Below are positions 584 to 40,185 of a stretch of DNA of 47,786 nucleotides, piece by piece; the stretch's first letter is position 1; each line of letters begins with the position of its first letter. The stretch is taken from positions 1 to 47,786 of the forward strand of contig JAVVRI010000002.1 of assembly GCA_036654795.1 (NCBI GenBank), given 5' to 3'. The notes beneath the pieces were generated by a model. It did no database searches. It was not told the DNA's origin and saw nothing but the letters and a program-made list of their open reading frames with translations. Made by a program: the position numbers and the translations under genes. The DNA is from Tannerellaceae bacterium. Lineage in GTDB: Bacteria > Bacteroidota > Bacteroidia > Bacteroidales > Tannerellaceae.

Positions 584-589
584 CATCCG

Positions 590-2889: not shown

Positions 2890-2924
2890 CACGAACGGAA
2901 TGAGTAAGAATAAAAGATAAGTCG

Positions 2925-3503: not shown

Positions 3504-3528
3504 TGAAAGAATAGCTATAAAACCAGAG

Positions 3529-3578: not shown

Positions 3579-3595
3579 TCCGATTGATAGGGGTA

Positions 3596-6112: not shown

Positions 6113-6136
6113 AAAGACCGGATTATTAGGTTTACC

Positions 6137-7885: not shown

Positions 7886-7892
7886 TGTCTTC

Positions 7893-12550: not shown

Positions 12551-12553
12551 GCT

Positions 12554-13588: not shown

Positions 13589-14409
13589 GGGAACTTGGGG
13601 TAATCTTCGAAGCGAGGGCGGCGTTTCTCGAGAAAAGCTTTGCCACCTTCCTGTGCCTCGTCGGTCATGTAATAGAGCATTGTCGCGTCTCCGGCCAGCT
13701 CTTGAATGCCGGCTTGGCCATCCAGCTCGGCGTTCAGTCCGGCTTTGATCATGCGCAGGGCGAGCGGACTGAGCAGCATCATCTCTTCAGACCACTCTAC
13801 GTATTCATCTTCCAGCTTATCCAGCGGAACCACTTTGTTCACCAGTCCCATGTCTAATGCCTCTTGCGCCGTGTATTTACGGCAGAGAAACCAGATCTCG
13901 CGTGCCTTCTTCTGGCCCACGATGCGGGCTAAATAAGAAGAGCCGAAGCCGGCGTCGAAGCTGCCCACACGCGGGCCGGTCTGACCGAAGATGGCATTAT
14001 CGGAAGCGATGGTGAGGTCGCAGACGACGTGCAACACGTGTCCACCCCCAATCGCAAAGCCGTTTACCGCCGCAACGACTGGCTTGGGCATCGACCGGAT
14101 CTGCTTCTGCACGTCCAGCACGTTGAGGCGGGCAACTCCGTCTTTGCCCACATAGCCTCCGTGTCCTTTTACGTTCATATCTCCTCCGGCGCAGAAGGCA
14201 GTATCGCCGGCACCGGTCAGTATAATCACACAGATGTCCGGACGCTCGCGGCAGATGTAGAGGGCGTCGCTCATCTCCGTTGTCGTGGTGGGGGTGAAGG
14301 CGTTACGATAGCGCTCGCGGTTGATGGTGATGCGGGCTATGCCGTGATAGAAATCAAACAGAATCTCTTCATATTCTTTGATGGTTGTCCATTCTCTTGT
14401 TGTTGACAT
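13585..14409 (-). CDS. menB: 1,4-dihydroxy-2-naphthoyl-CoA synthase
   Basis: 274 aa with a crotonase fold. Motifs [13 protein letters not shown] and [24 protein letters not shown] are present. Confidence 0.9.
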
Positions 14410-14411
14410 GT

Positions 14412-16079: not shown

Positions 16080-16094
16080 AATGTTGTTGTTCTA

Positions 16095-18400: not shown

Positions 18401-18426
18401 AACCTTTGTGTTTTTATAATCCGATA

Positions 18427-18434
18427 CAAATATA
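18427..18434 (-). promoter_or_regulatory. Candidate -7 box (TATATTTG on the minus strand) for the men operon
   Basis: Plus-strand CAAATATA lies 26 nt upstream of ATG 18400. Confidence 0.45.
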
Positions 18435-18497
18435 CAGAATGTTTTTTCCCTCTTTTCTATCTTGGCGCGGTTTTGTTTGAAATAGTCTGCTTCCGGA

Positions 18498-22126: not shown

Positions 22127-22936
22127 ATGGAAAGCACTGTGTTAAATGTGGAAAAGACGGATGAAAGCTATAAGGTGCCTAATCTGGAAAAAGGTATCGC
22201 TGTGCTGGAGTATTTGTCGCTCCATCCAGCAGGAGAAACTTTGCAGGAAATTAAGTCTGTGCTCGATATATCCCAAACAACTGCCTACCGTATATTAAAT
22301 ACGTTGGTTCGTTTGAATTATCTATTGTATAATGAAGACACCAAGCGTTACAGCCTTTCTCGCAAGATGCTTACGCTGGGTTTCCGGTCGCTGAATGAAC
22401 ATAATTTGCTTGAAACTGTTTTGCCTCGTTTACGCGATTTACGTGATGCTGTAAAGGAAACAGCTTGTTTCGGTGTGCTGGGAAATGAAAAGGGGATTTT
22501 TATTGAACAGGCGCAAGGACACCATACTTTTCGTTTTGTGCTTTCTCCCGGCAAACCGTTCGATTTGCATTGTTCTGCTCCCGGCAAAGCCATCATGGCT
22601 TACCTCCCGAACACAGTGCGCGATCGCTATCTTTCTATCATGGAGTTTACTCCTTATAATAGCCGCACGATTACTACCCAAGAAGCCTATTTGAAAGAAC
22701 TAGAACAGGTGCGCAAGCTTGGTTATTCGATGGATAACGAGGAGGAGCTGAATGGCGTGATTTGCATTGGTGCGCCGATTTTTAATTATACCGGTTACCC
22801 GTGCGGTGCTATTTGGATATCAGGTCCGAAAGATCGTCTGACGAAGGAGGTAATCCGCGCTTCTTCCCAGCAGATAAAAGAGGTTGCTAATACTATTTCT
22901 ACGGAATTAGGTTACGGTAAAATATATAAGAAATAA
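22127..22936 (+). CDS. IclR-family transcriptional regulator
   Basis: 269 aa. N-terminal wHTH LEKGIAVLEYLSLHPAGETLQEIKSVLDISQTTAYRILNTLVRLNYL. The C-terminal IclR effector domain carries RTITTQEAYLKELEQVRKLGYSMDNEEELNGVICIGAPIF. Confidence 0.85.
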   Translation: MESTVLNVEKTDESYKVPNLEKGIAVLEYLSLHPAGETLQEIKSVLDISQTTAYRILNTLVRLNYLLYNEDTKRYSLSRKMLTLGFRSLNEHNLLETVLPRLRDLRDAVKETACFGVLGNEKGIFIEQAQGHHTFRFVLSPGKPFDLHCSAPGKAIMAYLPNTVRDRYLSIMEFTPYNSRTITTQEAYLKELEQVRKLGYSMDNEEELNGVICIGAPIFNYTGYPCGAIWISGPKDRLTKEVIRASSQQIKEVANTISTELGYGKIYKK

Positions 22937-22955
22937 CACACAATACACTAGTATC

Positions 22956-24734
22956 ATGAACACACGAAAATATATAAGAACACAGTTGATTACGGCCTGC
23001 TTGATTGGCTTGTCTGTTGCTTTTGCAGCGGCGGGCAATCCTCCATTGTTTACTACGGACGTGGTGCTGAATGCGAAAGGGGAGATGCTTTTTGCACAAA
23101 AAGGTACAAAACGGATAGATGTTTTTTCAACAGACGGAAAAACATTGTTGCGTTCTTATCCGCTGGACGAAGCTCCTACGGGTATTCTTTTGGATGGAGA
23201 CAAGGCGTATGTAACCACCTTTGGCTCTACAGGGCATTTGCAGATTCTGTTGTTGGAGACGGGTAGGGTAGAGGCTTCCATCCATACTGGCTCCGGCTCC
23301 TGTCACCCGATGTTTGGGGTGGACAAGAAAAAAATCTATGTCTGCAACCAGTTTGATAACAATGTGGTAGAAGTGGATTTGGCTCAGCGTAAAGTGGTGC
23401 GTAGTGCCAAGGTGCTGCGCGAACCCAAATCGGCTGTGCTTAGCAAAGATGGCAAATATATGTTTGTGCCCAACTTCCTGCCTGCCCAGCGTGCGGATTT
23501 GGATGTGGTCGCTGCGGCCGTCTCGGTTATTAAAATGGATGACTTCACTAAGGTAAAAGATATTCCGTTGGCAAATGGTAGCAATGCTTTGCGTGGTATT
23601 TGTATCACGCCGGATGGGAAGTATATTTATGTATCCCATAATTTGGGACGTTTCACCGTTCCGACCTCGCAGTTGCAACAAGGATGGATGAACACGAGTG
23701 CATTTAGTGTGATCGATGTCGCTGCTCAGTCGTTTGTCGGAGCCGTTCTGGTGGATGAGCCGGATCGTGGTGCAGCCGGTATATGGAGCATCGCTTGTAA
23801 CAACGAAAAGATATTTATCAGCCATAGTGGTACGCATGAGATTAGCGTGATTGATCATCAAGCTATGCTCGAACGGTTCCTTGCATATAAGGATAAAAGC
23901 CGTTTGGATTATGATTTGAACTTTCTATACGGTTTGCGTGAACGAATACCGGTTAGCGGTAATGGTCCGCGTTGTCTGCTTCTGGCAGGCAATCAACTGA
24001 TTGTTCCTACTTACTTTGCCGATGTGCTCAATGTGATGGATATTCAAACAAACGTAATGAAGTCTGTCGAGTTGAATCCCGGTCGTACGGAAACAGAGGA
24101 ACAGAAAGGTGAAAAATATTTTAATGATGCGATGAACTGCTTTCAAGGCTGGCAGAGTTGTAACGGATGCCATCCCGGCGATGCGCGTACCGATGGGATG
24201 AACTGGGACTTGATGAATGATGGTGTGGGTAATTCGAAAAACTGTAAAAGTATGCTTTATAGCCATGTTACGCCGCGTAACATGATTTCCGGTATTCGCG
24301 CTTCGGCTGAATTGGCTGTACGTGCCGGATTCAAATTTATCCAATTTTATGAAGTTTCTGAGGAGCAAGCCGCCGCGGTGGATGCCTACATGAAGGCTTT
24401 GCGCCCTGTGCCCAGTCCTTACTTGGTGAACGGTGAATTGTCGGACAAGGCAAAAGAGGGACGTAAGATATTTGATAAGCTCAAGTGTGGCGAGTGTCAT
24501 AGCGGTCCTTACTTTACCGACCTAAAGATGCACCGTATTGGTGAAAACGTGGAGTTCGAAGAGGGATGGGATACCCCTACGTTGGTTGAAGTATGGCGCA
24601 CGGCTCCCTACCTGTTTAATGGTCGGGCAGCCACGATGGAAGAGGTGTTTAGCGTTCATAAACACGGCATCGAAAAGAAGCGGGTTTCAAATAAAGAGAT
24701 AGAAGCATTAACAGAATATGTAAATTCACTTTAA
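22956..24734 (+). CDS. Secreted fusion of a beta-propeller (YVTN-like repeats) with a di-haem cytochrome c peroxidase/MauG-like domain
   Basis: 592 aa with a signal peptide. Repeated GK.(I/M)(Y/F)V... blades are present. Two CXXCH sites occur: CNGCH at nt 24159-24173 and CGECH at nt 24486-24500. The second lies in the CCP-typical context CGECHSGPYFTD...WDTPTLVEVWRTAPYLFNGRAATMEEV. Confidence 0.75.
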   Translation: MNTRKYIRTQLITACLIGLSVAFAAAGNPPLFTTDVVLNAKGEMLFAQKGTKRIDVFSTDGKTLLRSYPLDEAPTGILLDGDKAYVTTFGSTGHLQILLLETGRVEASIHTGSGSCHPMFGVDKKKIYVCNQFDNNVVEVDLAQRKVVRSAKVLREPKSAVLSKDGKYMFVPNFLPAQRADLDVVAAAVSVIKMDDFTKVKDIPLANGSNALRGICITPDGKYIYVSHNLGRFTVPTSQLQQGWMNTSAFSVIDVAAQSFVGAVLVDEPDRGAAGIWSIACNNEKIFISHSGTHEISVIDHQAMLERFLAYKDKSRLDYDLNFLYGLRERIPVSGNGPRCLLLAGNQLIVPTYFADVLNVMDIQTNVMKSVELNPGRTETEEQKGEKYFNDAMNCFQGWQSCNGCHPGDARTDGMNWDLMNDGVGNSKNCKSMLYSHVTPRNMISGIRASAELAVRAGFKFIQFYEVSEEQAAAVDAYMKALRPVPSPYLVNGELSDKAKEGRKIFDKLKCGECHSGPYFTDLKMHRIGENVEFEEGWDTPTLVEVWRTAPYLFNGRAATMEEVFSVHKHGIEKKRVSNKEIEALTEYVNSL

Positions 24735-24776: not shown

Positions 24777-25871
24777 ATGAATTATTGCGAAAAGATACAT
24801 TATAATATATATATTGCCAAGAAAGCAGACTTTTTGACGATGGTCGATGAATTGTTGGCTCAGATACCCGAGAATGAATCGCTTTTGCGGTTAGCGTTTT
24901 TTGGTACACCGAGTAGTAATGAGGAGTATGTTGATCGGCGCGTTTTATTACGTGAAAAGATACGTCGCCGGTATGGCAATCATGAACCCGTGTTGAGTTA
25001 TGTATCTCAGCCACCACTTCATGCAACATTGATATTGGAGGTGCATAGTTATATCCCTGACGAAGATGATCATATAACCTATAAGAGCCTGCGGGGTTTT
25101 CCGTATGTGTTATTAGAAAACAGCGAAGGGCGGTTCCTTTTTGCAGGAGGCTTTCATGGGGATGTAATCAATTTCGCGGTGGAACAGCAGTCGATCGAAG
25201 TGTTTCGACTCGTTGCCGAAGTGATGCGTCGTGAAGGTTTCCCGATTAATAGCATTATTCGCCAATGGAACTACATCGAACAAATCACTCGTTTTGATGG
25301 CGAGAACCAGCACTATCAGACCTTTAATAATGCAAGAGGTGACTATTATGCTATGACGGGATGGCCGGATGGATATCCGGCTGCAACAGGTATTGGGGCA
25401 AATCTGGGTGGTATTCTAGTTGATCTTGATGCTGCAGTTTTTAAGGATTCAACTTGTTTCGCTACGCCGATAGATAATAAATTGCAAGTAGCAGCTCATG
25501 CTTATTCGGAACAAGTTCTGGCATCTGCTCGTCATCGTAAAGCAACGCCGAAATTCGAGCGCGCCAAGAGCATGACTTTTGGGGATCGGAGGTTGGTCTA
25601 TATTTCCGGTACGGCGGCCATTCGGGGAGAAGAAAGTTTGATTGGAGTAGGACTGGCGCGCCAGCTACACATTACGATGGAAAACATCGACCAACTGATT
25701 GGTCAGGCGCGTCTCACGATGCTTAGAGTTTATCTGAAAGAACCCTCTTTTTATGAAGAGGCAGAGGACTTGCTCGAAGCCTATCATTTGGGAATACCCA
25801 TATCTTATATGTGGGCTGACGTATGTCGTGATGAATTGCTTATTGAAATTGAAGGTATAGCTATTGAATAA
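24777..25871 (+). CDS. FkbO/Hyg5-type chorismatase-like protein (YjgF/RidA-fold C-terminus)
   Basis: 364 aa. IRQWNYIEQITRFDGENQHYQTFNNARGDYY and VYISGTAAIRGEES...ITMENIDQLI...LLIEIEGIA match my recollection of the FkbO/Hyg5/XanB2 family. At minimum it contains a RidA-like domain. The start could also be an internal Met (MVDELL). Confidence 0.5.
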   Translation: MNYCEKIHYNIYIAKKADFLTMVDELLAQIPENESLLRLAFFGTPSSNEEYVDRRVLLREKIRRRYGNHEPVLSYVSQPPLHATLILEVHSYIPDEDDHITYKSLRGFPYVLLENSEGRFLFAGGFHGDVINFAVEQQSIEVFRLVAEVMRREGFPINSIIRQWNYIEQITRFDGENQHYQTFNNARGDYYAMTGWPDGYPAATGIGANLGGILVDLDAAVFKDSTCFATPIDNKLQVAAHAYSEQVLASARHRKATPKFERAKSMTFGDRRLVYISGTAAIRGEESLIGVGLARQLHITMENIDQLIGQARLTMLRVYLKEPSFYEEAEDLLEAYHLGIPISYMWADVCRDELLIEIEGIAIE

Positions 25872-25903: not shown

Positions 25904-26641
25904 ATGAGAAAAGGATTAAATGTGAAAACAATGGTAATGGGGATGTTATTATTCTCCATGGTGGCTTGCACTGGCAAGACAAATGGTACGGCTGATTCAG
26001 CCGCATGTGCTGATTCGACACAATGTGCCGGATGTACTACAGATAAATCTAACTGTAAAAATAATAAAGAGATGACTTACACTAAAAAGTACACAAACGC
26101 CGACTTCTACAAGGACGGCAAGTTTAATCAGGAAGTAGCCATGCAGGCTTACAAGGATATGTTCGAATTTTACGGCGTTCCTTTTACTGAGTTAATGGCG
26201 AAAGACATGTGGGTAACAGACTTTGGTTTGGGCGATTTCGAAAACGTAGGTATGGGTGGTATCTTCTGGGTAAACGATTCAGAATACAAGTATTTCGCAC
26301 ATGCTATCTATCTGTTGCCTAACCAAATGATACCCGAACATGCGCACGTAAAAACAGCGTTTCCTGCCAAACATGAATCATGGATGGTTGAAAAAGGCTG
26401 GGTCTATAACTTCTCTGAAGTGGGCGACGAAACGCCAAATGCACCTGCAATTCCTGCCGGTCATGGTCCTATCAAGAGCAAAAACTTCACTGTACAGAAG
26501 GTGGGCGACGTGCTTCGTTTGAAGAAATTGGAAACATTCCACTTTATGATGGCAGGTCCCGAAGGAGCTGTGGTTGACGAGTGGGCATGTTATCACGACA
26601 ACGCAGGTCTGCGCTTTACAAACGCAAAGGCAGCACTTTAA
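25904..26641 (+). CDS. Lipoprotein with a Cys-rich linker and a cupin domain resembling D-lyxose/D-mannose ketol-isomerases
   Basis: 245 aa. Lipobox LFSMVAC|TGK. Linker ...AACADSTQCAGCTTDKSNC. Cupin metal-ligand pattern PEHAHV...KHESW...FHFM. Confidence 0.45.
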   Translation: MRKGLNVKTMVMGMLLFSMVACTGKTNGTADSAACADSTQCAGCTTDKSNCKNNKEMTYTKKYTNADFYKDGKFNQEVAMQAYKDMFEFYGVPFTELMAKDMWVTDFGLGDFENVGMGGIFWVNDSEYKYFAHAIYLLPNQMIPEHAHVKTAFPAKHESWMVEKGWVYNFSEVGDETPNAPAIPAGHGPIKSKNFTVQKVGDVLRLKKLETFHFMMAGPEGAVVDEWACYHDNAGLRFTNAKAAL

Positions 26642-26658: not shown

Positions 26659-26699
26659 CGCCGGCAGACATTCCCTACTAAGGGGATTGTCTGCCGACG
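26659..26699 (+). terminator. Long imperfect hairpin after the cupin gene (no U-tract)
   Basis: CGCCGGCAGACATTCCCT / AGGGGATTGTCTGCCGACG give about 16 pairs with 2 mismatches and 1 bulge around a 4-nt loop. It is followed by TTAAAAAC rather than a T-run. Confidence 0.4.
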
Positions 26700-26728
26700 T
26701 TAAAAACAACCTTAGTAAGTAATAACAC

Positions 26729-29700
26729 ATGAATAAATATAACTTATTAGTGTCGCTTTTCTTATCCTCCTCTTTTCTGGTATCGGCTGTGCCAAAGCAG
26801 AAGACGGTGGAGACGTGGATTGATGCTTCTGTAAAAGCGAAATCAGAATTGCGCGCACAACTTCAGAAGTCAGGTATGCCTGTTCTGTCTAAATGGATGA
26901 AGCATAAAAGTAATGCTGCTCCCTTTGTTGTAGACCTTAAGGGAGTAGATAAGTTGGTGCTGATCACTTCCGGAGGCCCTGACGGTTCCGAATACGATCA
27001 AGCTGTATGGGGTAACGCCCGTTTAATAGCAGCCGATGGTACTTCGGTGTGGTTGGATGAAATTCCTTTTGAATATGGCATAGCTGGTTGGGCTAAACCC
27101 AAGATGAATATCAATGCCTATGATAAAGAAATTTACATCGGTGGAAAACTCTATCCGCATGGTGTGTTTTGCCATGCGAACGGTACGCTGGTCTATCCTG
27201 TAAACAATAAATATGTACGCTTTGAAGCCGAAGTAGGTATAGAAGATACCTCTAGCGGAGGGAGCGTATTCTTTCAGGCGCTGAATGTGTTTCCTAAAAC
27301 GATTGGGGATGCGTTGATCCAGAAATATCCGAGTCAGATCGGTTTGTTGAGTGCCGGTATGGATGGATTGGATACTTGGTTGATTACACCCGATGCTTCT
27401 GTTGAAAAACAGGCTGTAGCGGACGTAGTAGCCAAACTGAAAGATGGCTCTTATTTTAAAAATGCCATGCAGACGATTGACGGAGAGAAAGATCTGAACG
27501 CGCAAATACGTAAATACCTAGAACTGTTTGAAAAGGTACAGGATGTATATACAGTACAATGCGACTTGCAGTGGCTCAATATGGATGCTATCAAGTTGGC
27601 CTTCGACGATATGAAGAAACAGAAAGGCTTTGATGTTGCCAAATACGAACCGATGTACAAAGAATTATTGCAGCTTCAGCAGAAAGGCTTTACCGGTATC
27701 TATAAAGGGGATGCCACAGCATTGGCTGATGCCCGTAAGGCATTGGATAATAAGCGTTCGATATTACTTGGCAACCCGTTGCTGAATGGCGATAAGGTTG
27801 TAGCTACTCACTTTAAATTGGGATCGCGTGCCCGCCAAGCTATGGCTCCCGATTTGGGCACACAGGCTAACAACTGGAGTAATCAAGAGTCTGCTCGTCG
27901 TATCGGTTTTGATGCTGAGATTGTGGAACTGAGTAATCTGCGCGGTGACATCAAAACACGTAGCGTATACAAAGCACCGAATGCCTCTTCTATTGCTGAC
28001 CTGCGTCTGCATTGGGATGGCGACCGGATGATGTTTACACAAACAATGCCCGACAAACGTTGGAATGTATTTGAAGTGAAGATGGATGGAACCGGATGCA
28101 AACCGTTGATTGAAAACGAAGAGCCGGATCTGGAATTCTATGACGGAACTTATCTACCCGACGGACGCATTATTGCAAACTCGAATATTGGTTATCAGGG
28201 TGTTCCCTGCGTAAGTGGTGACGACCCTGTCGGCAACATGGTGCAGTACGATCCGAAGAGCAAGACGCTGCGTCGTTTGACTTTCGATCAGGATGCCAAC
28301 TGGAATCCGGTAGTGATGAATAACGGTCGTGTGATGTATACTCGTTGGGAGTACACGGACTTGACGCACTACTATTCACGTATCATTATGCACATGAATC
28401 CGGACGGAACGGAAAATAAAGCGCTTTATGGTAGTGGCTCTATGTTCCCGAATAGTACGTTCGACGTACAACCTCTTCCGGGACATTCTTCTGCTTTTGT
28501 AGGTGTTATTTCCGGACACCACGGTATTGCTCGCTCGGGGCGTCTGATCGTATTCGATCCGACAAAAGCTCGTAAGGGAACAGCTGGTATTGTACAGGAG
28601 ATTCCTTATCGTAATCGTCCAGTAGTAGAGTTAATAAAAGATGAATTGGTAAATGGCGTATGGCCTCAGTTCATCAAACCGACTCCGCTAAATGACAAAT
28701 ACTTCTTAGTTGCTGCGAAGTTAGATCAGCAATCCTTGTGGGGTATCTATTTGGTGGATATCTATGATAATGTAACTTGTCTGATGCAGGCAGAAGGCGA
28801 AGGTTTTATCAGTCCCGTTGTACTGCGCAAGACGGCAACACCTCCGGCCATTCCAGACCGTGTGAAGCTGAATGACAAGGAAGCTACCGTCTTTATTCAG
28901 GACATTTACGAAGGAGAGGGTTTGATGGGTGTGCCTCGTGGTATCGTCAAATCACTCCGTCTGCATGCTTATGAATATGCTTATGTGAAGACGACTTCCG
29001 ATCATAACTGGCATGGTATTCAGAGTGGGTGGGACATCAAGCGTCAATTGGGTACGGTACCTGTTGAGTCGGATGGTTCTGTGATCTTTAAAGTTCCGGC
29101 CAATACGCCTATCTCCATTCAACCGTTGGATGAAAACGGAGTTGCCATTCAATGGATGCGTAGCTGGTTTACAGCACAACCGGGTGAAGTAGTTTCTTGC
29201 GTAGGTTGCCATGAAGATCAAAATCAGATCCCGATGCCGAAGCGTGTCATTGCTTCTCAGAAGGCTCCTTCCCGATTGGCTACCCCTGAAGGTGGTGTCC
29301 GTTCGTTCACATTCGACCTCGAGATACAACCTATTTTGGATCGTGCTTGTATTGCCTGCCATAATGGTGAAGGTAAAGCGTTCGATATGCGTGGTGGTAA
29401 GAAGGATAAGCGTGGTTATGGTTCATCCTATCTAAACCTTCATCCTTACGTTCATCGTCAAGGAGGAGAAGGAGATATGGTCGTATTGCAACCTTACGAA
29501 TATCATCCCAATACCAGCGAATTGGTTCGTATGTTGAAGAAGGGTCATCACAATGTGAAACTGACCGATGCCGAATGGTTGAAACTTTATAACTGGATTG
29601 ATTACAATGCTCCGGATAAGGGTTATTTCAATGCCAATAAGATCACAGACTTCCCTTATAAGGGTTTCGATCAGATTGCTCGTCGTAAGGAGTTGACCGA

Positions 29701-30724
29701 CAAATATGCCGGTGGTGCCGGGGTCGATTGGAAAAAAGAAATCTCCGACTATGCCGGATACTTGAAGAGTAAAGGAGAAATCAAACCCGTAATGCCTGAA
29801 AAACTACCTCCTGTAAAGGAAAAGACAGTGAAGGTAAAGGGCTGGCCATTTGACGCAACTGCTATTAAAGCAATGTTAGCGAACGAAAAGGAAACTCGCA
29901 AAGAGATAGAACTGATGCCGGGTGTTAAAATGACATTTGTACGCATCCCTGCCGGTACGTTTGTTATGGGTAGTTATCAGGGTGAACCTGACGCTTATCC
30001 TATATCCAAAGTGAAGATTGCAAAATCTTTCTGGATGGCGGAAATGGAAGTAACGAACGAACAGTTCCGTACGATCTATCCCGACCATGACAGCCGCTTT
30101 GTCGATCAGATGTGGAAAGACCACGTTGTGCAAGGTTATCCTGCCAACAATCCGGAGCAACCAGTTATCCGCGTAAGCTATAACGACGCTATGGAATATT
30201 GCAAGAAACTGAGTGAAAAGACAGGTCTCCACATTACGCTTCCTACCGAGGCACAATGGGAGTGGGCTTGTCGCGCAGGTAGTGCTGAAGACTTCTGGTA
30301 TGGTAACATGAATGCTAATTTTGGCAAGTTCGAAAACCTGGCCGATGTTACGACACTCAAGTTTGCTGTAAGCGGTGTTAATCCGCAGCCGATGCCAAAG
30401 ACATCAAGCTGGTACAAGTACTATACATATCTTCCGAAAGAAGAAGGTGTTGATGATGGAAATCTGATTCAGGTAAATTCGAAAGCCTATCAGGCTAATC
30501 CCTTCGGATTGTACAGTATGCATGGTAATATTGCCGAGTGGACTCGTTCTGATTACGCGTCTTATCCGTACTCTGAAAAAGTTAAAACTCCTTCAGAATA
30601 CAAAGTTGTGCGCGGAGGTTCGTATATTGAGCGCCCGAAGTACTCTACGGCTTATTCCCGCAAGGCATATTATCCGTATCAACGCGTGTTCAACGTGGGC
30701 TTCCGGGTAGTGATTGAAGATTAA
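26729..30724 (+). CDS. 1331-aa secreted multidomain protein: NPCBM-like carbohydrate-binding module, helical region, TolB/PD40-like propeller, two CXXCH haem-c motifs (HzsA-middle-domain-like region), and a C-terminal FGE-sulfatase-fold domain
   Basis: Signal peptide MNKYNLLVSLFLSSSFLVSA. NPCBM-like segment YIGGKLYPHGVFCHANGTLVYPVNNKYVRFEAEVGIEDTSSGGSVFFQ. CVGCH lies at nt 29198-29212 and CIACH at nt 29348-29362. The FGE-fold covers about nt 29905-30721, with FWMAEMEVTNEQF, GLYSMHGNIAEWT, VVRGGSY and NVGFRVV. Confidence 0.7.
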   Translation: MNKYNLLVSLFLSSSFLVSAVPKQKTVETWIDASVKAKSELRAQLQKSGMPVLSKWMKHKSNAAPFVVDLKGVDKLVLITSGGPDGSEYDQAVWGNARLIAADGTSVWLDEIPFEYGIAGWAKPKMNINAYDKEIYIGGKLYPHGVFCHANGTLVYPVNNKYVRFEAEVGIEDTSSGGSVFFQALNVFPKTIGDALIQKYPSQIGLLSAGMDGLDTWLITPDASVEKQAVADVVAKLKDGSYFKNAMQTIDGEKDLNAQIRKYLELFEKVQDVYTVQCDLQWLNMDAIKLAFDDMKKQKGFDVAKYEPMYKELLQLQQKGFTGIYKGDATALADARKALDNKRSILLGNPLLNGDKVVATHFKLGSRARQAMAPDLGTQANNWSNQESARRIGFDAEIVELSNLRGDIKTRSVYKAPNASSIADLRLHWDGDRMMFTQTMPDKRWNVFEVKMDGTGCKPLIENEEPDLEFYDGTYLPDGRIIANSNIGYQGVPCVSGDDPVGNMVQYDPKSKTLRRLTFDQDANWNPVVMNNGRVMYTRWEYTDLTHYYSRIIMHMNPDGTENKALYGSGSMFPNSTFDVQPLPGHSSAFVGVISGHHGIARSGRLIVFDPTKARKGTAGIVQEIPYRNRPVVELIKDELVNGVWPQFIKPTPLNDKYFLVAAKLDQQSLWGIYLVDIYDNVTCLMQAEGEGFISPVVLRKTATPPAIPDRVKLNDKEATVFIQDIYEGEGLMGVPRGIVKSLRLHAYEYAYVKTTSDHNWHGIQSGWDIKRQLGTVPVESDGSVIFKVPANTPISIQPLDENGVAIQWMRSWFTAQPGEVVSCVGCHEDQNQIPMPKRVIASQKAPSRLATPEGGVRSFTFDLEIQPILDRACIACHNGEGKAFDMRGGKKDKRGYGSSYLNLHPYVHRQGGEGDMVVLQPYEYHPNTSELVRMLKKGHHNVKLTDAEWLKLYNWIDYNAPDKGYFNANKITDFPYKGFDQIARRKELTDKYAGGAGVDWKKEISDYAGYLKSKGEIKPVMPEKLPPVKEKTVKVKGWPFDATAIKAMLANEKETRKEIELMPGVKMTFVRIPAGTFVMGSYQGEPDAYPISKVKIAKSFWMAEMEVTNEQFRTIYPDHDSRFVDQMWKDHVVQGYPANNPEQPVIRVSYNDAMEYCKKLSEKTGLHITLPTEAQWEWACRAGSAEDFWYGNMNANFGKFENLADVTTLKFAVSGVNPQPMPKTSSWYKYYTYLPKEEGVDDGNLIQVNSKAYQANPFGLYSMHGNIAEWTRSDYASYPYSEKVKTPSEYKVVRGGSYIERPKYSTAYSRKAYYPYQRVFNVGFRVVIED

Positions 30725-33297: not shown

Positions 33298-33612
33298 ATG
33301 AGAACATTTAATCACGTAGGTATTCCTACAACTGAAAGTAAAGCAGGAGCAGTCTATAACGAAGGTCTGAGTGTCTGGCTGACTGATTATAGTAAAAGTA
33401 CAAACCGCATTGAATTTTTAAAGTTTGAGGCAGGTAGCTGCATGCCTGAATTGATTCAAACAACAGCTCATTTGGCTTATACCGTGCCTTGTCTCAAAAC
33501 AGAACTGGAAGGTAAAAAGGTCATCTTTGGCCCGGCTGTATGCGACGAGCATCTGACGATTGCTTTTATCGAAGAAGAGGGTATTGCTATTGAAATTATG
33601 GAAATTAAATAA
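33298..33612 (+). CDS. Small VOC (glyoxalase/bleomycin-resistance fold) family protein
   Basis: 104 aa. The FNHVGIPT start, HLAYTV and IAFIEEEGIAIEIMEI fit the paired beta-alpha-beta-beta-beta module pattern. Confidence 0.5.
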   Translation: MRTFNHVGIPTTESKAGAVYNEGLSVWLTDYSKSTNRIEFLKFEAGSCMPELIQTTAHLAYTVPCLKTELEGKKVIFGPAVCDEHLTIAFIEEEGIAIEIMEIK

Positions 33613-33635
33613 TAAAAAAAAGGAGGAATCACATT

Positions 33636-34652
33636 ATGTCAGCTATTAAAACAAAATTCATTAACGAACCGGATCAGATCACACCCGAATTGCTGGAAGG
33701 TTATGTGTTAGCTTATAAAGATAAAGTAAAATTGGCTAGTGAGAATATCGTCGTACGCGTACAGCCGAAGAGCGAAGACAAAGTGGCTGTTGTTACTTTG
33801 GGCGGATCTGGACACGAACCTGCCTTGAGCGGTTTCGTTGGCGAAGGTATGTTGGACTGTTCCGTAGTGGGCGATGTTTTTGCTGCTCCAGGTGCACAAC
33901 GTCTTTTTCAGGCTTTGCAACTGATGAAGCGCGAAGCTGGTATCCTGTTGGTGGTGCTTAACCATTCCGGCGACATTATGAGTGCAAACATGGCTTGCCA
34001 GTTGGCTGCCCGCGTAGGTATCAAAGTAAAGCAAATCATTACACACGATGACATTAGTGCTGGTGTAGGTACGGACAATAACGATCGTCGTGGTCTGGCT
34101 GGTTGCGTTCCGTTATATAAAATATTGGGCGCTGCCGCTGAAGAAGGCAAATCATTGGACGAACTGATCGAAATAGGCGAACGTTTCAATAACAAATTGG
34201 CTACACTGGCTGTGGCTATGCGCTCATGTACACACCCGCAGAATGGTGGTATCATTACCGACCTGCCCGAAGGCGTGATGGAGATTGGTATGGGACAGCA
34301 TGGTGAAGGTGGTGGCGGTTGCCAACCTCTTGTGTCGGCTGACGCTACTGCCACCCAGATGATCGATTTGCTTTGTCAGCAATTGAAACCGGCAGCCGGA
34401 GACAAGATGCTTCTTGTCATCAATGGCGTAGGTGCTACGACCCACATGGAGCTAAACATCATCTTCCGTAAAGCTTATATGGAGCTTGAAGCCCGTGGCC
34501 TCGAAGTTGCAGAAAGCCGTATTCAGGAGATCTTGACCGTACAGGAACAGGCTGGTTTCCAGATGATCCTTGCCGGACTGGATGCTGATCATATCGACTA
34601 TTTGAAGAACAAACGCTCCGATGCTCCTTACTGGACTGTTATCGGCAAATAA
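33636..34652 (+). CDS. dhaK: DhaK-type (dihydroxyacetone/ketose kinase) substrate-binding subunit
   Basis: 338 aa. LGGSGHEPALSGFVGEGMLDCSVVGDVFAAP and EIGMGQHGEGG are DhaK signatures. An AGGAGG sequence lies 9 nt upstream of the ATG. Confidence 0.85.
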   Translation: MSAIKTKFINEPDQITPELLEGYVLAYKDKVKLASENIVVRVQPKSEDKVAVVTLGGSGHEPALSGFVGEGMLDCSVVGDVFAAPGAQRLFQALQLMKREAGILLVVLNHSGDIMSANMACQLAARVGIKVKQIITHDDISAGVGTDNNDRRGLAGCVPLYKILGAAAEEGKSLDELIEIGERFNNKLATLAVAMRSCTHPQNGGIITDLPEGVMEIGMGQHGEGGGGCQPLVSADATATQMIDLLCQQLKPAAGDKMLLVINGVGATTHMELNIIFRKAYMELEARGLEVAESRIQEILTVQEQAGFQMILAGLDADHIDYLKNKRSDAPYWTVIGK

Positions 34653-34666
34653 TAAATAATAACGCT

Positions 34667-35281
34667 ATGAAACAATTAACAACAGATGCTTTCAAAACCA
34701 TGCTTCAGCATGCGTTGACACAGATTAAGGCTCGCGAAGATGAGTTCTCAAAGTTGGATGCCGTGATTGGTGACGGCGACCATGGTATGGCCATCGTTTC
34801 TGCTTTTTCCGTAGCTGTGGAAGCAGCAGAGAAAGGAACAGAGTTTAAGGCCATGCTTAATGATATGGGCTTTGGTGTTATGCTGGCAACGAGTGGCTCA
34901 ACCAGTACCTTAATGGGTGCCTTCTTCTTGGGTATGAGCGATCATGCTGCTGGTACGGAGCTGGATGCTACTGCTGTAAAGGCGATGTTTGCTGGTGGAC
35001 TAGCAAACATACAACAACAGACCAAAGCCCAGAAGGGGGATAAAACGATGATGGATGCTCTTATTCCTGCTATCGAAGCAATGGAAGCTTGTACGTCGGA
35101 CGATGTGAAAGAGATACTGACCGCCGGTGCCACGGCTGCTCTTGCCGGAGCCGAAGCTACTATACAAATGAAGGCAAATTTCGGACGCGCGCGCAACTAT
35201 GGTGAACGCTCTATCGGTTATGCGGACAGCGGCGCTACTTCTTGGAGTTGCATGCTGGCCTCTTTCGCTGAAGCTTTTTGA
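34667..35281 (+). CDS. dhaL: DhaL-type nucleotide-binding subunit of the DhaK/DhaL kinase
   Basis: 204 aa. LDAVIGDGDHGMA (Mg-nucleotide-binding Asp cluster) and GDKTMMDALIPA are present. Confidence 0.85.
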   Translation: MKQLTTDAFKTMLQHALTQIKAREDEFSKLDAVIGDGDHGMAIVSAFSVAVEAAEKGTEFKAMLNDMGFGVMLATSGSTSTLMGAFFLGMSDHAAGTELDATAVKAMFAGGLANIQQQTKAQKGDKTMMDALIPAIEAMEACTSDDVKEILTAGATAALAGAEATIQMKANFGRARNYGERSIGYADSGATSWSCMLASFAEAF

Positions 35282-35327
35282 CCTCAGATAGCAATTAAAA
35301 TAATAAACAATAAAAACAACTTAAGTA

Positions 35328-36200
35328 ATGGCAGATTTAGATGATTTAAGAGAAGGTAACGACTTTGGTGTAGGAGTATCCTCTCAGAACCAGAGTTTTC
35401 ATGTAAAGGGTGCGGCCAACCAAGCTTGGGGCATGAAGGATCGCTTGTCGCGCATATTCAATCCCGAAACAGGTAAGGCCGTTATGCTGGCTTTCGACCA
35501 TGGTTTCATTATGGGGCCTACCTCCGGATTGGAGCGTATTGACCTCAATATTGTACCTCTGATTGAGTATGCTGACTGCTTGATGTGTACGCGTGGTATT
35601 CTGCAATCTACTATTCCCGCAAACGTAAACAAGCCGATTTGTCTTCGTTCTGATGCTGGTACGACGATTTTGACAGAGCTAAACAACAACGTGCTAATCG
35701 ATATTGAAGATGCTATACGCATGAACGTATCTGCTATGGCTGTTATGTTGGCTATTGGCGATCCTGCCTTCGAAGCTACAACAGTTGCCAATCTGTTTAA
35801 AGCAGCAGACAAAGGAGCTCGTTACGGTATTCCTGTTATGGGAGTAACTGCAGTAGGCAAGCAAATGGCTCGTGACGCCCGCTACTTTGGTTTGGCCTCA
35901 CGTATTTGTGCTGAGAACGGTGCAAACATCGTGAAGACTTACTATTGCGAAGGCTTTGAGAAAGTAGCTGCTGCCTGCCCCGTGCCGGTAGTAATTGCCG
36001 GAGGTAAGAAATTGCCCGAAAAGGAAGCGCTGGAGTTATGCTACAACGCCATCAATGACGGTGCTGCCGGTGTGGACATGGGACGTAATGTATTCCAAAG
36101 TGCTCATCCTGTTGCTATGATTCAAGCAGTACGTGCCGTGGTACACGACGGATTAACACCCGACCAAGCCATGGAGTTATTCCGCGACATCGCAGAATAA
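35328..36200 (+). CDS. Class I aldolase of the DhnA/FbaB family, LsrF-like (LsrF is 3-hydroxy-5-phosphonooxypentane-2,4-dione thiolase)
   Basis: 290 aa. These segments align along the whole length with my recollection of E. coli LsrF: MADLDDLREGNDF..., WGMKDRLSRIFNPETGKAVMLAFDHG, GLERIDLNIVPL, ADCLMCTRGIL, GANIVKTYY, CPVPVVIAGGKKLPEKEALE and GVDMGRNVFQSAHPVAM. Confidence 0.7.
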   Translation: MADLDDLREGNDFGVGVSSQNQSFHVKGAANQAWGMKDRLSRIFNPETGKAVMLAFDHGFIMGPTSGLERIDLNIVPLIEYADCLMCTRGILQSTIPANVNKPICLRSDAGTTILTELNNNVLIDIEDAIRMNVSAMAVMLAIGDPAFEATTVANLFKAADKGARYGIPVMGVTAVGKQMARDARYFGLASRICAENGANIVKTYYCEGFEKVAAACPVPVVIAGGKKLPEKEALELCYNAINDGAAGVDMGRNVFQSAHPVAMIQAVRAVVHDGLTPDQAMELFRDIAE

Positions 36201-36339: not shown

Positions 36340-37224
36340 ATGAATAAAGCTTATATGTTATTAATTGCTGCCCTACTGCTATTGGTCGGTACCTCTTGCC
36401 AACCTAAGGCAGAAAAGTTATTGCTGGGTGGTTCCGGTTGGAATAAAATAGTAATCATCGACAAAGAGACAAAGGCTATTGAATGGGAGCATCCCATGGA
36501 AGCTGGTTGGGAATGTAACTCCGTAGCCGCTACGACGGACGGGAACATCCTTTTCTCATACGCCAAAGGTGCCAAACTAATCACAAAGGATCATAAAGAG
36601 CTTTGGAATATACCTGCCCCTGAAGGTGCAGAGATGCAGACCGCCGCTATCCTGGCAGACGGCAACTTTTTGCTGGCTTGGTGCGGCCATCCGGCTACCA
36701 TTATGGAAGTATCGCCTAAGGGTGAAATGCTGAAAAAGGTAGAATACGAAACTGGTGTAGAAGCACCTCACGCACAGTTCCGCCACGTAAGCAAGGCGGC
36801 TAACGGCAATTATTTGATGCCTATCTTTGCCACTTCCGACGTGCGCGAAATAAGTCCCGAAGGTACATTGGTTAAGACGATCGCCCTCGAAGGTACTCCT
36901 TTCTGTATTGTTCCGTTAGCGAATGGAAACTCGCTGGCTGCTTGTGGCGATGCGCATAGCTATGTGGAGTTGGATGCAAACGGTGCGATTGTACGTAAAG
37001 TGAGCGGTACTGATATTGAAGGCACTTCTCTTTACTTTGTTGCCGAACTGTTACCCCTTGCGGATGGCAGTCTATACGTATGTAACTGGCAAGGACATGG
37101 AGGCGATGCTGCCGCAGGCACTTTCCCCCAATTGATCGAAGTGGACAAAACCGGCAAGATGATCTGGAGCCTAAACGACAATGCCGCTTTTGGCATGATA
37201 TCGGCTATCTGTCCGGTGAAGTAG
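36340..37224 (+). CDS. Lipoprotein, predicted small beta-propeller (family not identified)
   Basis: 294 aa. Lipobox LLLVGTSC|QPK. Repeated motifs of the type DGN(I/F)L...G....(V/I) suggest blades. Confidence 0.45.
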   Translation: MNKAYMLLIAALLLLVGTSCQPKAEKLLLGGSGWNKIVIIDKETKAIEWEHPMEAGWECNSVAATTDGNILFSYAKGAKLITKDHKELWNIPAPEGAEMQTAAILADGNFLLAWCGHPATIMEVSPKGEMLKKVEYETGVEAPHAQFRHVSKAANGNYLMPIFATSDVREISPEGTLVKTIALEGTPFCIVPLANGNSLAACGDAHSYVELDANGAIVRKVSGTDIEGTSLYFVAELLPLADGSLYVCNWQGHGGDAAAGTFPQLIEVDKTGKMIWSLNDNAAFGMISAICPVK

Positions 37225-37274
37225 GACTTTGCCCTTCCTGATCCAAGTATGTACTAAATAATACAATCAACAAT

Positions 37275-39158
37275 ATGAAGTTGCATCTTATCGACGTACT
37301 TATTATAGCACTCTACCTGGTGGTGATGGTCATCATCGGGTTGGTGCTTAAAAAGAAAGCGTCAAAGAATCTGGACTCTTACTTCCTGGGGGGTAAGAGT
37401 TTGCCTTTTTATATGCTGGGGCTGTCCAATGCCTCGGGGATGTTCGATATCTCCGGGACGATGTGGATGGTTTACCTTGCGTTCGTTTATGGATTAAAGA
37501 GCCTTTGGATACCTTGGCTGTGGCCGGTATTCAATCAAATCTTCCTCATGATATACCTTTCCATCTGGCTGCGCCGCTCGAATGTACTGACGGGAGCGGA
37601 GTGGATCCGTACGCGCTTCGGCTTCGGACGTGGGGCTACGCTTTCGCATACCATTGTGGTGATATACGCTGTGGTCGGTGTGTTGGGCTTCTTGAGTTAC
37701 GGCTTCATTGGTATTGGTAAGTTTATGGAGATTTTCTTCCCCTGGGAGATTGTGTCGCAATATGTACCTTTCGACGTGGCGCCTGAGTATGTACCGCATG
37801 TGTATGGCATCTTCTTTACTACCATTGCTACCTTCTATGTGATGATGGGGGGGATGTTGAGCATTGTCTGGACGGACGTGGTGCAGTTTGGTATTATGAC
37901 CGTTGCCGGTGTCGTGATTGCTGTGATTGCAATGATGAAGGTAACGCCTGAGATGCTTTCTGCTCATGTACCGGTAGGATGGGATACCCCTTTCTTTGGC
38001 TGGACGCTGGATATGGACTGGAGCCAGCTGATACCTGCCGTGACGGATAAGATGGCGGCAGATCAGTATGGACTCTTTACGATTGTCATCATGATGATGC
38101 TCTTTAAAGGAGTATTCCTTAGCATGGCCGGTCCGGCGCCTAACTATGACATGCAGAAAATTCTTGCCTGTAAGACACCGAAGGAGGCTGCCCTGATGAG
38201 TGGTTCCGTGCCGGTGATTCTGCTTATACCGCGCTATCTGATGATTATGGGTTTTGCCGTGTTGGCTATTGTCTTCTTTAGTGAAGACTTCCGGTCGATG
38301 GGTGCGGCGGTGGACTTTGAAACGATTTTGCCCCGTGCTATTGGCGAGTTTGTGCCGGTAGGGTTGGCCGGGCTGTTGCTGGCGGGATTGCTGGCTGCCT
38401 TTATGTCGACCTTCGCCTCTACGGTGAACGCCGCGCCGGCTTATCTGGTGAACGATGTGTATTTGAAGTATATTAACCCGAAGGCTTCTGCCCGCACGCA
38501 GATTCGTGCCAGTTACCTGATTTCGGTGCTGGTCGTGGTGGTCAGTACGGTGATAGGTCTCTTTGTGCTCAATATCAACTCGGTGTTACAGTGGATTGTT
38601 TCTGCTCTTTATGGTGGATATATCGCTGCCAACTTGTTGAAGTGGCATTGGTGGCGCTTCAACGGATATGGATACTTCTGGGGTATGTTGGCCGGCATCT
38701 TGGCCGCTATGATTGTGCCGCAGTTCTTCCCGAATACCTTGCCGCTCTATTATTTCCCGTTGCTAATGTTCGTATCGTTCATCGGTTGTATTGTGGGTAC
38801 GTTGCTGAACGAACCGACGGACGACGAGACACTGATCAACTTCTATGTGCGTGTTCGTCCGTGGGGCTTCTGGAAGCCGATAGCAGACAAGGCCGTGGCA
38901 CGTTATCCGAAGGTGGAGCGTAATACGCATTTTAAACGCGATATGTTTAACGTAGCCATCGGTATTGTCTGGCAGTTGAGTTTGACCATTATCCCGATGT
39001 ACATCGTAATCAAAGAGGGCATGCCGCTCTTTACTTCCATTATTATCCTAGGTGTAACAACGCTGATCTTAAAGAAGAACTGGTACGACAAGATGGATAA
39101 GGAGTCGAAGGAATACGACACGTTGATGGACGAACTGAAACTGGAAGAAAAGAAATAG
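37275..39158 (+). CDS. Sodium:solute symporter (SSS) family transporter
   Basis: 627 aa with about 13-14 hydrophobic helices and N-terminal LDSYFLGGKSLP typical of SSS carriers. Confidence 0.75.
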   Translation: MKLHLIDVLIIALYLVVMVIIGLVLKKKASKNLDSYFLGGKSLPFYMLGLSNASGMFDISGTMWMVYLAFVYGLKSLWIPWLWPVFNQIFLMIYLSIWLRRSNVLTGAEWIRTRFGFGRGATLSHTIVVIYAVVGVLGFLSYGFIGIGKFMEIFFPWEIVSQYVPFDVAPEYVPHVYGIFFTTIATFYVMMGGMLSIVWTDVVQFGIMTVAGVVIAVIAMMKVTPEMLSAHVPVGWDTPFFGWTLDMDWSQLIPAVTDKMAADQYGLFTIVIMMMLFKGVFLSMAGPAPNYDMQKILACKTPKEAALMSGSVPVILLIPRYLMIMGFAVLAIVFFSEDFRSMGAAVDFETILPRAIGEFVPVGLAGLLLAGLLAAFMSTFASTVNAAPAYLVNDVYLKYINPKASARTQIRASYLISVLVVVVSTVIGLFVLNINSVLQWIVSALYGGYIAANLLKWHWWRFNGYGYFWGMLAGILAAMIVPQFFPNTLPLYYFPLLMFVSFIGCIVGTLLNEPTDDETLINFYVRVRPWGFWKPIADKAVARYPKVERNTHFKRDMFNVAIGIVWQLSLTIIPMYIVIKEGMPLFTSIIILGVTTLILKKNWYDKMDKESKEYDTLMDELKLEEKK

Positions 39159-39186
39159 TATAACCATTTAATTTAAGACAAAGAAA

Positions 39187-40185
39187 ATGACAGACTTGAA
39201 GATTATTGGAAATGCCTTACCCGATATGCCGTGGGAGGAGCGGCCGGAAGGATGCAAAGACGTGTTATGGCGTTACTCCGCCAATCCGGTGATTCCTCGT
39301 GATATTACCTCTACCTCGAACAGCGTGTTTAACAGTGCCGTGGTGCCTTTCAAGGGTGGCTATGCCGGCGTGTTCCGCTGCGACGACACCAACCGACGCA
39401 TGCGTTTGCATGTGGGCTTTAGTGCTGATGCCATTCATTGGTCTATTGCAGAGGAGAAGTTGGAGTTTACCTGCGACGATGCGGAGATAGGCGAATTTGT
39501 TTATGCCTACGACCCGCGCGTATGCTTCATCGAAGATCGTTACTACATTACTTGGTGCAATGGCTATCATGGCCCGACGATTGGTGTGGCGTATACGTTC
39601 GACTTCGTAACTTTCCACCAGTTGGAGAATGCTTTCTTGCCTTTTAATCGTAACGGAGTGCTTTTTCCGCGCAAGATCAATGGTAACTTCGCCATGTTGA
39701 GCCGTCCGAGCGACAACGGACATACTCCCTTTGGTGACATATTTTATAGCGAAACACCGGATATGTGCTTCTGGGGAAAGCATCGCCATGTGATGTCTCC
39801 CGCTCCTTTCGAGCAGAGCGCTTGGCAGTGCATGAAGATTGGTGCCGGACCGATCCCGATCGAAACATCGGAAGGTTGGTTACTGATCTATCATGGTGTG
39901 CTTCATTCCTGCAACGGTTATGTGTATAGTTTTGGTGCTGCACTGTTGGACAGAGACGAGCCTTGGAAGGTAAAATACCGCTCCGGCCCCTATCTGCTTT
40001 CACCGCAAAAGGATTATGAATGTATGGGCGATGTGCCGAACGTAACTTTCCCGTGTGCCGCTCTGCATGATCCGGAGACGCGCCGCATTGCTATTTATTA
40101 TGGCTGTGCCGACACCGTGACTGGTCTTGCCTTTGGATATATTGACGAGATCGTTGAGTTTACGAAGAAGCATTCCATCATTTGA
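39187..40185 (+). CDS. GH130 beta-mannoside phosphorylase-like enzyme (short, GH130_2-like)
   Basis: 332 aa with no signal peptide. [45 protein letters not shown] and WLLIYHGV are GH130 five-bladed-propeller signatures as I recall them. Confidence 0.75.

Follow-up and report, generated by a model that had tools for sequence, protein, structure and literature searches.

An exported homologue of the hydrazine synthase alpha subunit, fused to an FGE-fold domain, in a Tannerellaceae bacterium

We analysed a 47,786-nt stretch of DNA from a Tannerellaceae bacterium (GCA_036654795.1, contig JAVVRI010000002.1, positions 1-47,786; hereafter the window), in which an uninterrupted open reading frame (ORF) with an ATG start (26729..30724, + strand) encodes a protein of 1331 amino acids. 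This protein, the target, is a homologue of HzsA, the alpha subunit of hydrazine synthase (HZS), and not a hydrazine synthase, and it belongs to the recently recognised non-anammox HZS-like systems. An earlier reading of the sequence alone (the sequence-only reading) had likened its propeller and CXXCH-bearing part to the HZS-alpha middle domain. Foldseek and profile comparisons bore this out and extended the resemblance to the whole core; the observation is well above chance.

Two AlphaFold models were used, one of residues 1-404 (pLDDT 85) and one of residues 340-1331 (pLDDT 91.5, pTM 0.89). The top structural match of the second model in the PDB was HzsA (kuste2861, 5C2V_A; Foldseek E 3.2e-25, 797 aligned columns, TMt 0.61), with structures of PvdO and formylglycine-generating enzyme (FGE) for the C-terminal domain and of TolB for the propeller as runners-up. 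With the single sequence, phmmer matched HzsA weakly (E 6.6e-4 to 2.7e-5 against the PDB); a profile of 48 core sequences from many phyla matched 5C2V_A at E 3.3e-40, the four aligned stretches being collinear and spanning HzsA residues 80-766. These stretches take in propeller, middle and C-terminal haem domains alike, so the homology extends over all three, and the whole core of about 700 amino acids, beyond the Pfam middle domain alone, is homologous to HzsA.

The two CXXCH motifs, correctly placed by the sequence-only reading at residues 824 and 874, 50 residues apart, fell on the haem sites of HzsA. CVGCH 824 was aligned with the haem αI motif CSGCH and CIACH 874 with the αII motif CAMCH, where IQPILDRACIACH of the target lay against IQPILDAKCAMCH of HzsA. 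Conservation of the motifs in relatives had been set beforehand as a test, and both were invariant in 37 full-length relatives (35-60% identity) as well as in the 48 core sequences, whose identity went down to 25%; their spacing was 50 +/- 2 residues in 114 of 122 representatives. H941 was aligned with His772, the distal ligand of HzsA haem αII, and lies beside the invariant H940, so that haem 2 is probably a bis-His electron-transfer haem. In HzsA, Tyr591 is the ligand of haem αI, and zinc is held by His587 and Cys303 (PMC12758564). The Tyr591 equivalent was lost, the residue four positions after the motif His being N, S, R or G in 122 representatives and never a conserved Tyr, and Cys303 was aligned with a Gly/Ser stretch (YGSGS) of the target. 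Since both residues are absent, haem 1 is probably ordinary His-ligated. The NCBIfam HzsA equivalog (NF052339) gave 43.4 bits against a cut-off of 800 and matched residues 771-829 only, and among the window-encoded proteins there were no anammox genes (hydrazine dehydrogenase, hydroxylamine oxidoreductase paralogues). A genuine hydrazine synthase was rejected, as the key residues are missing and the host is not an anammox bacterium.

All three Pfam searches that the sequence-only reading had proposed exceeded their cut-offs: PF08305 (NPCBM) at residues 106-183 (80-87 bits, cut-off 23.9; E 2e-22 to 1e-24), PF18582 (HZS_alpha middle domain) at residues 738-829 (125 bits, cut-off 26.6; E 1.5e-36) and PF03781 (FGE-sulfatase) at residues 1069-1328 (145.5 bits, cut-off 23.3; E 3e-42). 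The model of residues 1-404 comprised a hydrophobic signal helix, a beta-sandwich (50-185) in agreement with the predicted NPCBM segment, and a region (189-347) that was all-alpha as had been claimed, with a length of about 160 amino acids and not the 200 first given. Neither a Pfam scan of the isolated helical region (aa 190-404) nor a Foldseek search with the N-terminal model yielded a convincing match for it. The predicted export signal was likewise found as a Sec-type signal at the N-terminus, and no lipobox Cys was present in it by inspection.

In the model of residues 340-1331, a propeller of about 23 strands is followed by a middle domain rich in beta structure, then by a helical and an FGE-type domain. 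The propeller motifs were at the residues assigned to them (WDGDRMMF 429, DGRIIANS 478, NGRVMYTRWEY 532, NPDGTENKALYG 557 and GRLIVFDP 604), within a modelled propeller (~356-699) that matched TolB (TMt ~0.52) and HzsA, though a Pfam scan of the isolated propeller (aa 405-737) returned nothing, PD40 included. The propeller was confirmed by structure only, because Pfam was blind to it. Several of its residues are invariant in the family (C494, R539, W540, Y542, D559, G560), and a GHHG motif lies at 596-599. For the C-terminal haem region scanned alone, the only Pfam match was a marginal one to PccH.

The C-terminal domain has the FGE-sulfatase fold that had been predicted. Of the branches that had been suggested for it (GldJ/GldK, EgtB or PvdO), PvdO proved closest (Foldseek TMt 0.77 to PDB 5HHA; NCBIfam E 2.5e-23), although its score of 82.5 bits was under the equivalog cut-off of 500, and no pyoverdine genes were present in the target context. 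Against human FGE the TMt was ~0.67, and human and bacterial FGE both matched at E ~1e-14. The other branches fell away. A gliding component, which the sequence-only reading had named as an identity that would overturn it, was rejected on scores of 26.4 bits against 458 (GldJ) and 74.9 against 350 (GldK/PorK) and on the missing lipobox Cys; an EgtB/OvoA/SenA sulfoxide synthase was rejected on scores of 38-42 bits against 360-420, confined to the FGE part, with no DinB domain found by Pfam.

The copper-binding catalytic pair of FGE, Cys336 and Cys341 in the human enzyme, is missing from the target. In the alignment to copper-bound Streptomyces coelicolor FGE (6MUJ), the pair corresponded to Glu1301 and Ser1306. 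Of the 11 cysteines in the protein, four belong to CVGCH and CIACH and none lies within residues 1295-1324, between RGGSY (1295) and GFRVV (1324), just as the sequence-only reading had it. The same segment was Cys-free in 56 of the 72 representatives in which it was recognisable; in those of the remainder that were inspected, a Cys occupied the second pair position. The first pair position was Asp or Glu. The calcium-site-like residues N1257, G1266 and E1270 were invariant in the 37 full-length relatives. A genuine FGE was rejected because the Cys pair is absent, and for the same reason formylglycine synthesis by this domain, already doubted before, is unlikely. The remark that no sulfatase is encoded nearby also stood: there was none among the window ORFs of at least 150 amino acids, nor in the conserved Bacteroidota block described below.

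The claim of that reading that the architecture looked unprecedented failed. When the core (aa 368-1064) was searched with HMMER against 1.84 billion cluster representatives at 50% identity, 5081 representatives matched at E <= 1e-3, of which 1249 reached E <= 1e-30. Domain content was scored for the best 150 representatives by phmmer with the target's own domains: at least 106 had the propeller, middle, haem-2 and FGE domains, the rest were mostly fragments or FGE-less, and nearly all complete members had exactly two CXXCH motifs. Pfam found HZS_alpha and FGE-sulfatase in all 37 diverse full-length members, whose N-termini carried NPCBM (5), F5/8 type C (5), Laminin_G_3, carbohydrate-binding module (CBM) family CBM6, PA14, SASA esterase and other domains. 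A survey of one genome per species placed genes with both core and FGE domain in Bacteroidota (including Carboxylicivirga sediminis), Verrucomicrobiota, Kiritimatiellia, Victivallales (Lentisphaerae), Planctomycetota, Armatimonadia (Armatimonadota), Hydrogenedentota and one bin labelled Nitrospiraceae. Records of Parabacteroides goldsteinii universally carry an orthologue with ~81% identity to the target. An identical protein from a Tannerellaceae metagenome-assembled genome (MAG) is recorded in NCBI, and the NCBI product name of the target refers to a 'nonheme iron enzyme'. Several genomes hold two paralogous members of the target family in tandem or close together (loci L006, L008, L026 and L042; for example 6570-9758 and 9779-13189 in L026, and 548-4564 and 9005-13039 in L006).

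The sequence-only reading was incomplete in leaving unmentioned a beta-gamma-like partner, CcsBA and the sugar-catabolism genes that surround the target. Two genes upstream, the ORF at 22956..24734 probably encodes its partner subunit. This ORF matched HzsB (5C2V_B, E 1e-14) and HzsC (5C2V_C, E 5e-14, or 1.6e-15 with the C-terminal part alone), and the NCBIfam model hydrazine_BC for beta-gamma fusions matched it at E 6.5e-25, under the cut-off. Its CNGCH (402) and CGECH (511) motifs were aligned with haems gammaI and gammaII, in a region close to the HzsC pattern (WQSCxxCH...NWDLxNDGxGNxKNxKS), and γCys165 and Asp168 were unmatched in the pairwise alignment to HzsC. In Bacteroidota, Opitutaceae, Phycisphaerae, Planctomycetota and Hydrogenedentota, a beta-gamma-like gene was adjacent to or near relatives of the target and shared their strand, and one lay beside FGE-less relatives too. 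The pairing recurred in 11 other loci; the neighbouring copies shared long conserved stretches, and every full-length one retained both haem motifs.

The target lies in a block that runs on a single strand throughout, from an IclR-family regulator to a glycoside hydrolase (GH) family GH130 enzyme, and whose gene order is unchanged in P. goldsteinii (Table 1). Genes of the IclR, cupin, DhaK/DhaL, LsrF-type and Mal s 1-like kinds are found again next to relatives in other phyla. The gene that directly follows the target encodes CcsBA, identified by Pfam ResB and Cytochrom_C_asm and scoring narrowly below the TIGR03144 cut-off (171 against 187.6 bits); its position is kept in L001 and L003, and its presence next to the target suggests dedicated haem attachment. 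CcsBA adjacency was seen in P. goldsteinii and a Bacteroides MAG, with none near relatives in other phyla.

The cupin adjoins relatives in L003, L004, L018, L022, L024 and L045. A lipoprotein signal is present in the protein (25904-26641), as is a linker rich in Cys (AACADSTQCAGCTTDKSNC); a sugar isomerase-like cupin is unusual outside the cytoplasm, and this one occurs beside target relatives in at least four phyla. The catabolic genes from the 104-aa protein to the LsrF-type enzyme lie between the beta-gamma-like gene and the target in L018 and near the target in L005. The last of them, a 'DeoC' gene (35328-36200, + strand), exceeded the NCBIfam equivalog cut-off for LsrF, the thiolase of autoinducer-2 (AI-2) breakdown (462.6 against 297 bits). 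It adjoins DhaK/DhaL-like genes (33636-35281), not LsrK/LsrG. Together, the DhaK/DhaL-like and LsrF-type proteins may form an alternative path in which a phosphorylated hydroxy-diketone is made and then cleaved to dihydroxyacetone phosphate (DHAP). Mal s 1-like genes adjoin relatives in L003, L005, L007, L020, L024 and L030.

At more distant loci, the neighbours were sulfatases, GFO/IDH/MocA oxidoreductases, GH29 fucosidases, GH38, GH3 and sugar transporters. In four loci (L004, L006, L018 and L036), relatives stood near GH29 alpha-L-fucosidases that carry F5/8 type C modules; GFO/IDH/MocA oxidoreductases with Tat-like signals occurred in five loci, and sulfatase genes in eight of 51 (L012, L017, L020, L030, L034, L041, L042 and L050).

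Table 1. Features of the target gene and its block in the window, followed by the order of same-strand genes at loci of relatives ('target' there denotes the target-family gene)
Feature	Position (nt)	Strand	Basis or remark
IclR-family regulator	22127..22936	+	Pfam; first gene of block; recurs beside relatives in L003, L018, L022, L024, L045
Beta-gamma-like probable partner, 592 aa, exported	22956..24734	+	HzsB-like seven-bladed-type propeller and HzsC-like di-haem domain
FkbO/Hyg5-RidA-like cytoplasmic protein	24777..25871	+	Recurs in L003, L018, L024, L026
Lipoprotein, D-lyxose/D-mannose-isomerase-like cupin	25904..26641	+	PDB 7NZO E 3.6e-10; lipobox read from sequence
Target gene, 1331-aa exported HzsA-like di-haem protein	26729..30724	+	N-terminal NPCBM, C-terminal FGE/PvdO fold
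Sec-type signal peptide (MNKYNLLVSLFLSSSFLVSA)	26729..26791	+	Read from sequence; low-confidence helix in model
NPCBM-type beta-sandwich, putative glycan-binding module (aa 50-185)	26876..27283	+	PF08305; model strands aa 64-185
All-alpha linker domain (aa 189-347)	27293..27769	+	Model; no recognisable family
TolB/HzsA-like beta-propeller (aa ~356-699)	27794..28825	+	Model, ~23 strands; Foldseek to 5C2V_A and TolB
HZS-alpha 'middle' domain, haem motif 1 CVGCH at end (aa 824-828, nt 29198-29212)	28880..29215	+	PF18582
Helical cytochrome-c-like domain, haem motif 2 CIACH (aa 874-878, nt 29348-29362), conserved H940/H941	29312..29770	+	
FGE/PvdO-fold domain (aa 1069-1328)	29933..30712	+	Glu1301 and Ser1306 at catalytic Cys-pair positions
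CcsBA (ResB + CcsA fusion), 816 aa	30816..33266	+	System II cytochrome c haem attachment
104-aa protein, DhaK-like, DhaL-like, LsrF-type thiolase/aldolase	33298..36200	+	Cytoplasmic catabolic genes
Mal s 1-like lipoprotein, sodium:solute symporter, GH130 enzyme	36340..40185	+	
L018, Bacteroidales MAG, 56% identity			IclR - beta-gamma-like - FkbO - cupin - 104-aa - DhaK - DhaL - LsrF-type - target
L024, Carboxylicivirga			IclR - beta-gamma-like - FkbO - cupin - Mal s 1-like - target
L020, Opitutaceae			Beta-gamma-like - target - Mal s 1-like
L026, Hydrogenedentota			Two target paralogues - beta-gamma-like - FkbO-like
L011, Phycisphaerae			Target - beta-gamma-like
L022, Kiritimatiellia			IclR - target - cupin - 104-aa
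L004, unclassified MAG ('uncultured bacterium')			Target - cupin
L047, L051, L052, FGE-less relatives			Beta-gamma-like immediately upstream of core gene

Upstream of the target start codon there is a gap of 87 nt, which contains a 17-nt inverted repeat (26659-26675 / 26683-26699) and an alternative pairing (26670-26683 / 26710-26723) that ends just 5' of the ATG; these repeats could be a regulatory RNA structure. Elsewhere in the window, a menaquinone biosynthesis set (11528-18541, - strand) comprises MenF-, MenD-, MenB-, MenC- and MenE-like genes and a HAD-thioesterase fusion, with a G+C content of 0.55-0.59 against ~0.44 in the HZS-like block. A GH84 beta-N-acetylglucosaminidase with CBM32, followed by two DUF3857 transglutaminase-like / DUF3858 proteins (3596-9863, - strand), makes up an ordinary glycan-degradation neighbourhood.

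Taking as established the homology, the domain order, the invariance of the motifs and the recurrent neighbourhood, we consider it on balance probable that the target forms a periplasmic hetero-complex of an alpha-like and a beta-gamma-like di-haem protein, which carries out a redox step on a glycan-derived substrate and not the chemistry of HZS. The occupancy and ligation of the haems, the formation of the complex, the carbohydrate substrate and the direction of electron flow are what we infer here. After Sec export, the NPCBM domain (in relatives, other carbohydrate modules) would tether the protein to a glycan, and the CcsBA encoded directly downstream would attach the haems. The TolB-like propeller and the middle domain with c-haem 1 (Cys824/Cys827/His828) would make up the catalytic core. 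Haem 1, at the junction of propeller and middle domain and most probably with ordinary His ligation, would be the reactive centre, and haem 2 (Cys874/Cys877/His878), probably bis-His through His940 or His941, would relay electrons. The PvdO/FGE-fold domain, holding no copper through the FGE Cys pair, would most likely serve in substrate binding or assist the oxidation. Most likely partnered by the HzsB-HzsC-like di-haem protein, the alpha-like protein would belong to a complex that, judging from the operon, oxidises or reduces either a glycan-derived sugar or one of its groups, the reaction taking place outside the cytoplasm. Its product would pass to the periplasmic cupin lipoprotein, be imported, be phosphorylated by DhaK/DhaL and undergo LsrF-type cleavage towards DHAP.

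Several points weigh against this proposal. Haem binding is deduced from the motifs alone. HZS acts on small nitrogen compounds, so its ancestry lends no support to a sugar substrate. A recognised carbohydrate module was present in only about 14 of the 37 representatives, and since these phyla degrade glycans and often have carbohydrate-related neighbours at hand, chance could account for some of the adjacency. In the fetched flanks, a beta-gamma-like gene accompanied only 7 of 24 FGE-fused and 4 of 27 FGE-less loci, counts that are too low because many contigs are short, and the alpha-like protein may act alone or with a distant partner.

The homology itself raises another explanation, namely that the pair is a working nitrogen-oxide enzyme of the HZS kind, in which the beta-gamma-like protein reduces nitric oxide (NO), or nitrite or hydroxylamine, and the alpha-like protein condenses or detoxifies the product, for example protecting gut bacteria from NO or hydroxylamine. 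The HZS subunits are indeed the sole solved homologues of both proteins, and the gamma-like haem region is closely HzsC-like. An FGE-fold protein, NirV, moreover accompanies copper nitrite reductase genes in some bacteria. Yet the Tyr591 and Cys303 ligands, whose roles are taken from PMC12758564, are lost, γCys165 and Asp168 are unmatched, and the NCBIfam scores are well under the equivalog cut-offs (43 against 800 and 87 against 1250). There are no other nitrogen-cycle genes in the window, and the N-terminal modules and operon neighbours of the relatives are carbohydrate-related, so we regard nitrogen-oxide chemistry as quite unlikely. The catalytic centre might instead lie in the FGE fold, which would perform an oxygen-independent or haem-assisted modification of a protein or substrate, such as the maturation of periplasmic sulfatases or another client, with the haems as electron sink. 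PvdO is needed for a periplasmic oxidation step, and here the fold is well conserved (Pfam E 3e-42), with N1257, G1266 and E1270 invariant and an acidic D/E kept at the first catalytic Cys position; the sulfatase genes in eight of the 51 loci would also fit. This proposal is nevertheless rather unlikely in our view: the copper-binding Cys pair is absent family-wide, a sulfatase is encoded in neither the window nor the conserved Bacteroidota block, and the sulfatase adjacency was weighted lightly, because in five of those eight loci the relatives have no FGE domain, and because these phyla are very rich in sulfatases. FGE-less core homologues retain the same beta-gamma-like partner, which suggests that the conserved catalytic unit is the haem core.

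We think it highly improbable that the protein is mainly a non-catalytic scaffold or adhesin in the manner of GldJ/GldK/PorK, with lectin-like modules that bind glycans and with vestigial or structural haems. It has binding modules at both ends, and the best short sequence matches of the C-terminal part of the FGE domain were to PorK/GldK; the full GldK/GldJ models, however, scored well under their cut-offs and there is no lipoprotein signal. Against such a role stand the invariance of the CXXCH pair and of many polar propeller residues in relatives with as little as 25% identity, the neighbouring genes for a dedicated haem lyase and a di-haem partner, and the place of the target gene inside a catabolic operon.

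Hydrazine synthase was long believed to be without relatives. The HzsA-like core instead heads a very large family, in which most members have a Cys-less FGE-fold domain fused to the core, often together with a carbohydrate-binding module, and which occurs in a common human gut genus (Parabacteroides). The recurrent operon, with its beta-gamma-like, periplasmic cupin, DhaK/DhaL and LsrF-type genes, offers a tractable handle on the role of the ancestral scaffold. Should a glycan or sugar be the substrate, anaerobic polysaccharide breakdown would gain a new type of redox step, and the evolutionary origin of anammox would be reframed. A bolder idea, which we put forward tentatively as possible, is that a CBM-targeted alpha-like and a peroxidase-like beta-gamma subunit form a new class of haem-c-dependent carbohydrate-active redox enzyme (an 'auxiliary activity') on the hydrazine synthase scaffold, which would oxidise, or reduce, a periplasmic glycan or a substituent of a sugar. 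If true, glycan-degrading bacteria of the Bacteroidota and the Planctomycetes-Verrucomicrobia-Chlamydiae (PVC) group, strict gut anaerobes included, would open a catabolic route through DhaK/DhaL and LsrF-type cleavage, and hydrazine synthase would have arisen as a specialised branch of an ancient family of enzymes that process sugars.

Among known systems, the C-terminal domain is most readily compared with PvdO and FGE. It shares their fold and, like PvdO, is periplasmic and lacks the Cys pair, but it is fused to a di-haem core, has Glu and Ser in place of the two catalytic Cys, and stands in neither a pyoverdine nor a sulfatase context. With HzsA, the target has in common the three-domain core (propeller, middle domain with the first CXXCH, C-terminal domain with the second), a conserved His at or beside the αII distal-ligand site, the WIDLxA motif, and a beta- and gamma-like partner, here in the target's own operon. 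It differs in that the identity is only ~15%, Tyr591 and Cys303 are lacking, the partner is a beta-gamma fusion without γCys165, NPCBM, helical and FGE-fold domains are added, and the host is a gut Tannerellaceae and not an anammox bacterium, with the gene in a context of carbohydrate catabolism.

The closest published systems are the non-anammox homologues (clades I-IV) described by Hagglund et al. (Genome Biol Evol 2025; PMC12758564), which are distant from HZS, have co-localised genes for an alpha and a fused beta-gamma protein, and do not conserve the key residues of HZS. Their 'few' alpha homologues were from Planctomycetota, Desulfobacterota and a few others, often with FG-GAP/ABC-transporter neighbours and multi-haem beta-gamma proteins (PMC12758564). 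The text of that paper is silent on FGE fusions, carbohydrate modules, alpha homologues in Bacteroidota, Parabacteroides and sugar operons, and a 1110-aa 'SUMF1/EgtB/PvdO' protein of Opitutales appears in its raw supplementary hit table only (PMC12758564). Our literature search found no paper on the FGE-fused, glycan-linked subfamily. The target resembles clades I-IV in having a fused beta-gamma-like gene close to the alpha-like one, in retaining both CXXCH motifs and in lacking the residues specific to HZS. The target differs from clade I, in which a conserved His near His772 was reported absent (PMC12758564), in keeping such a His, and whereas alpha homologues were 'few' in that paper, they form thousands of clusters in the present scan.

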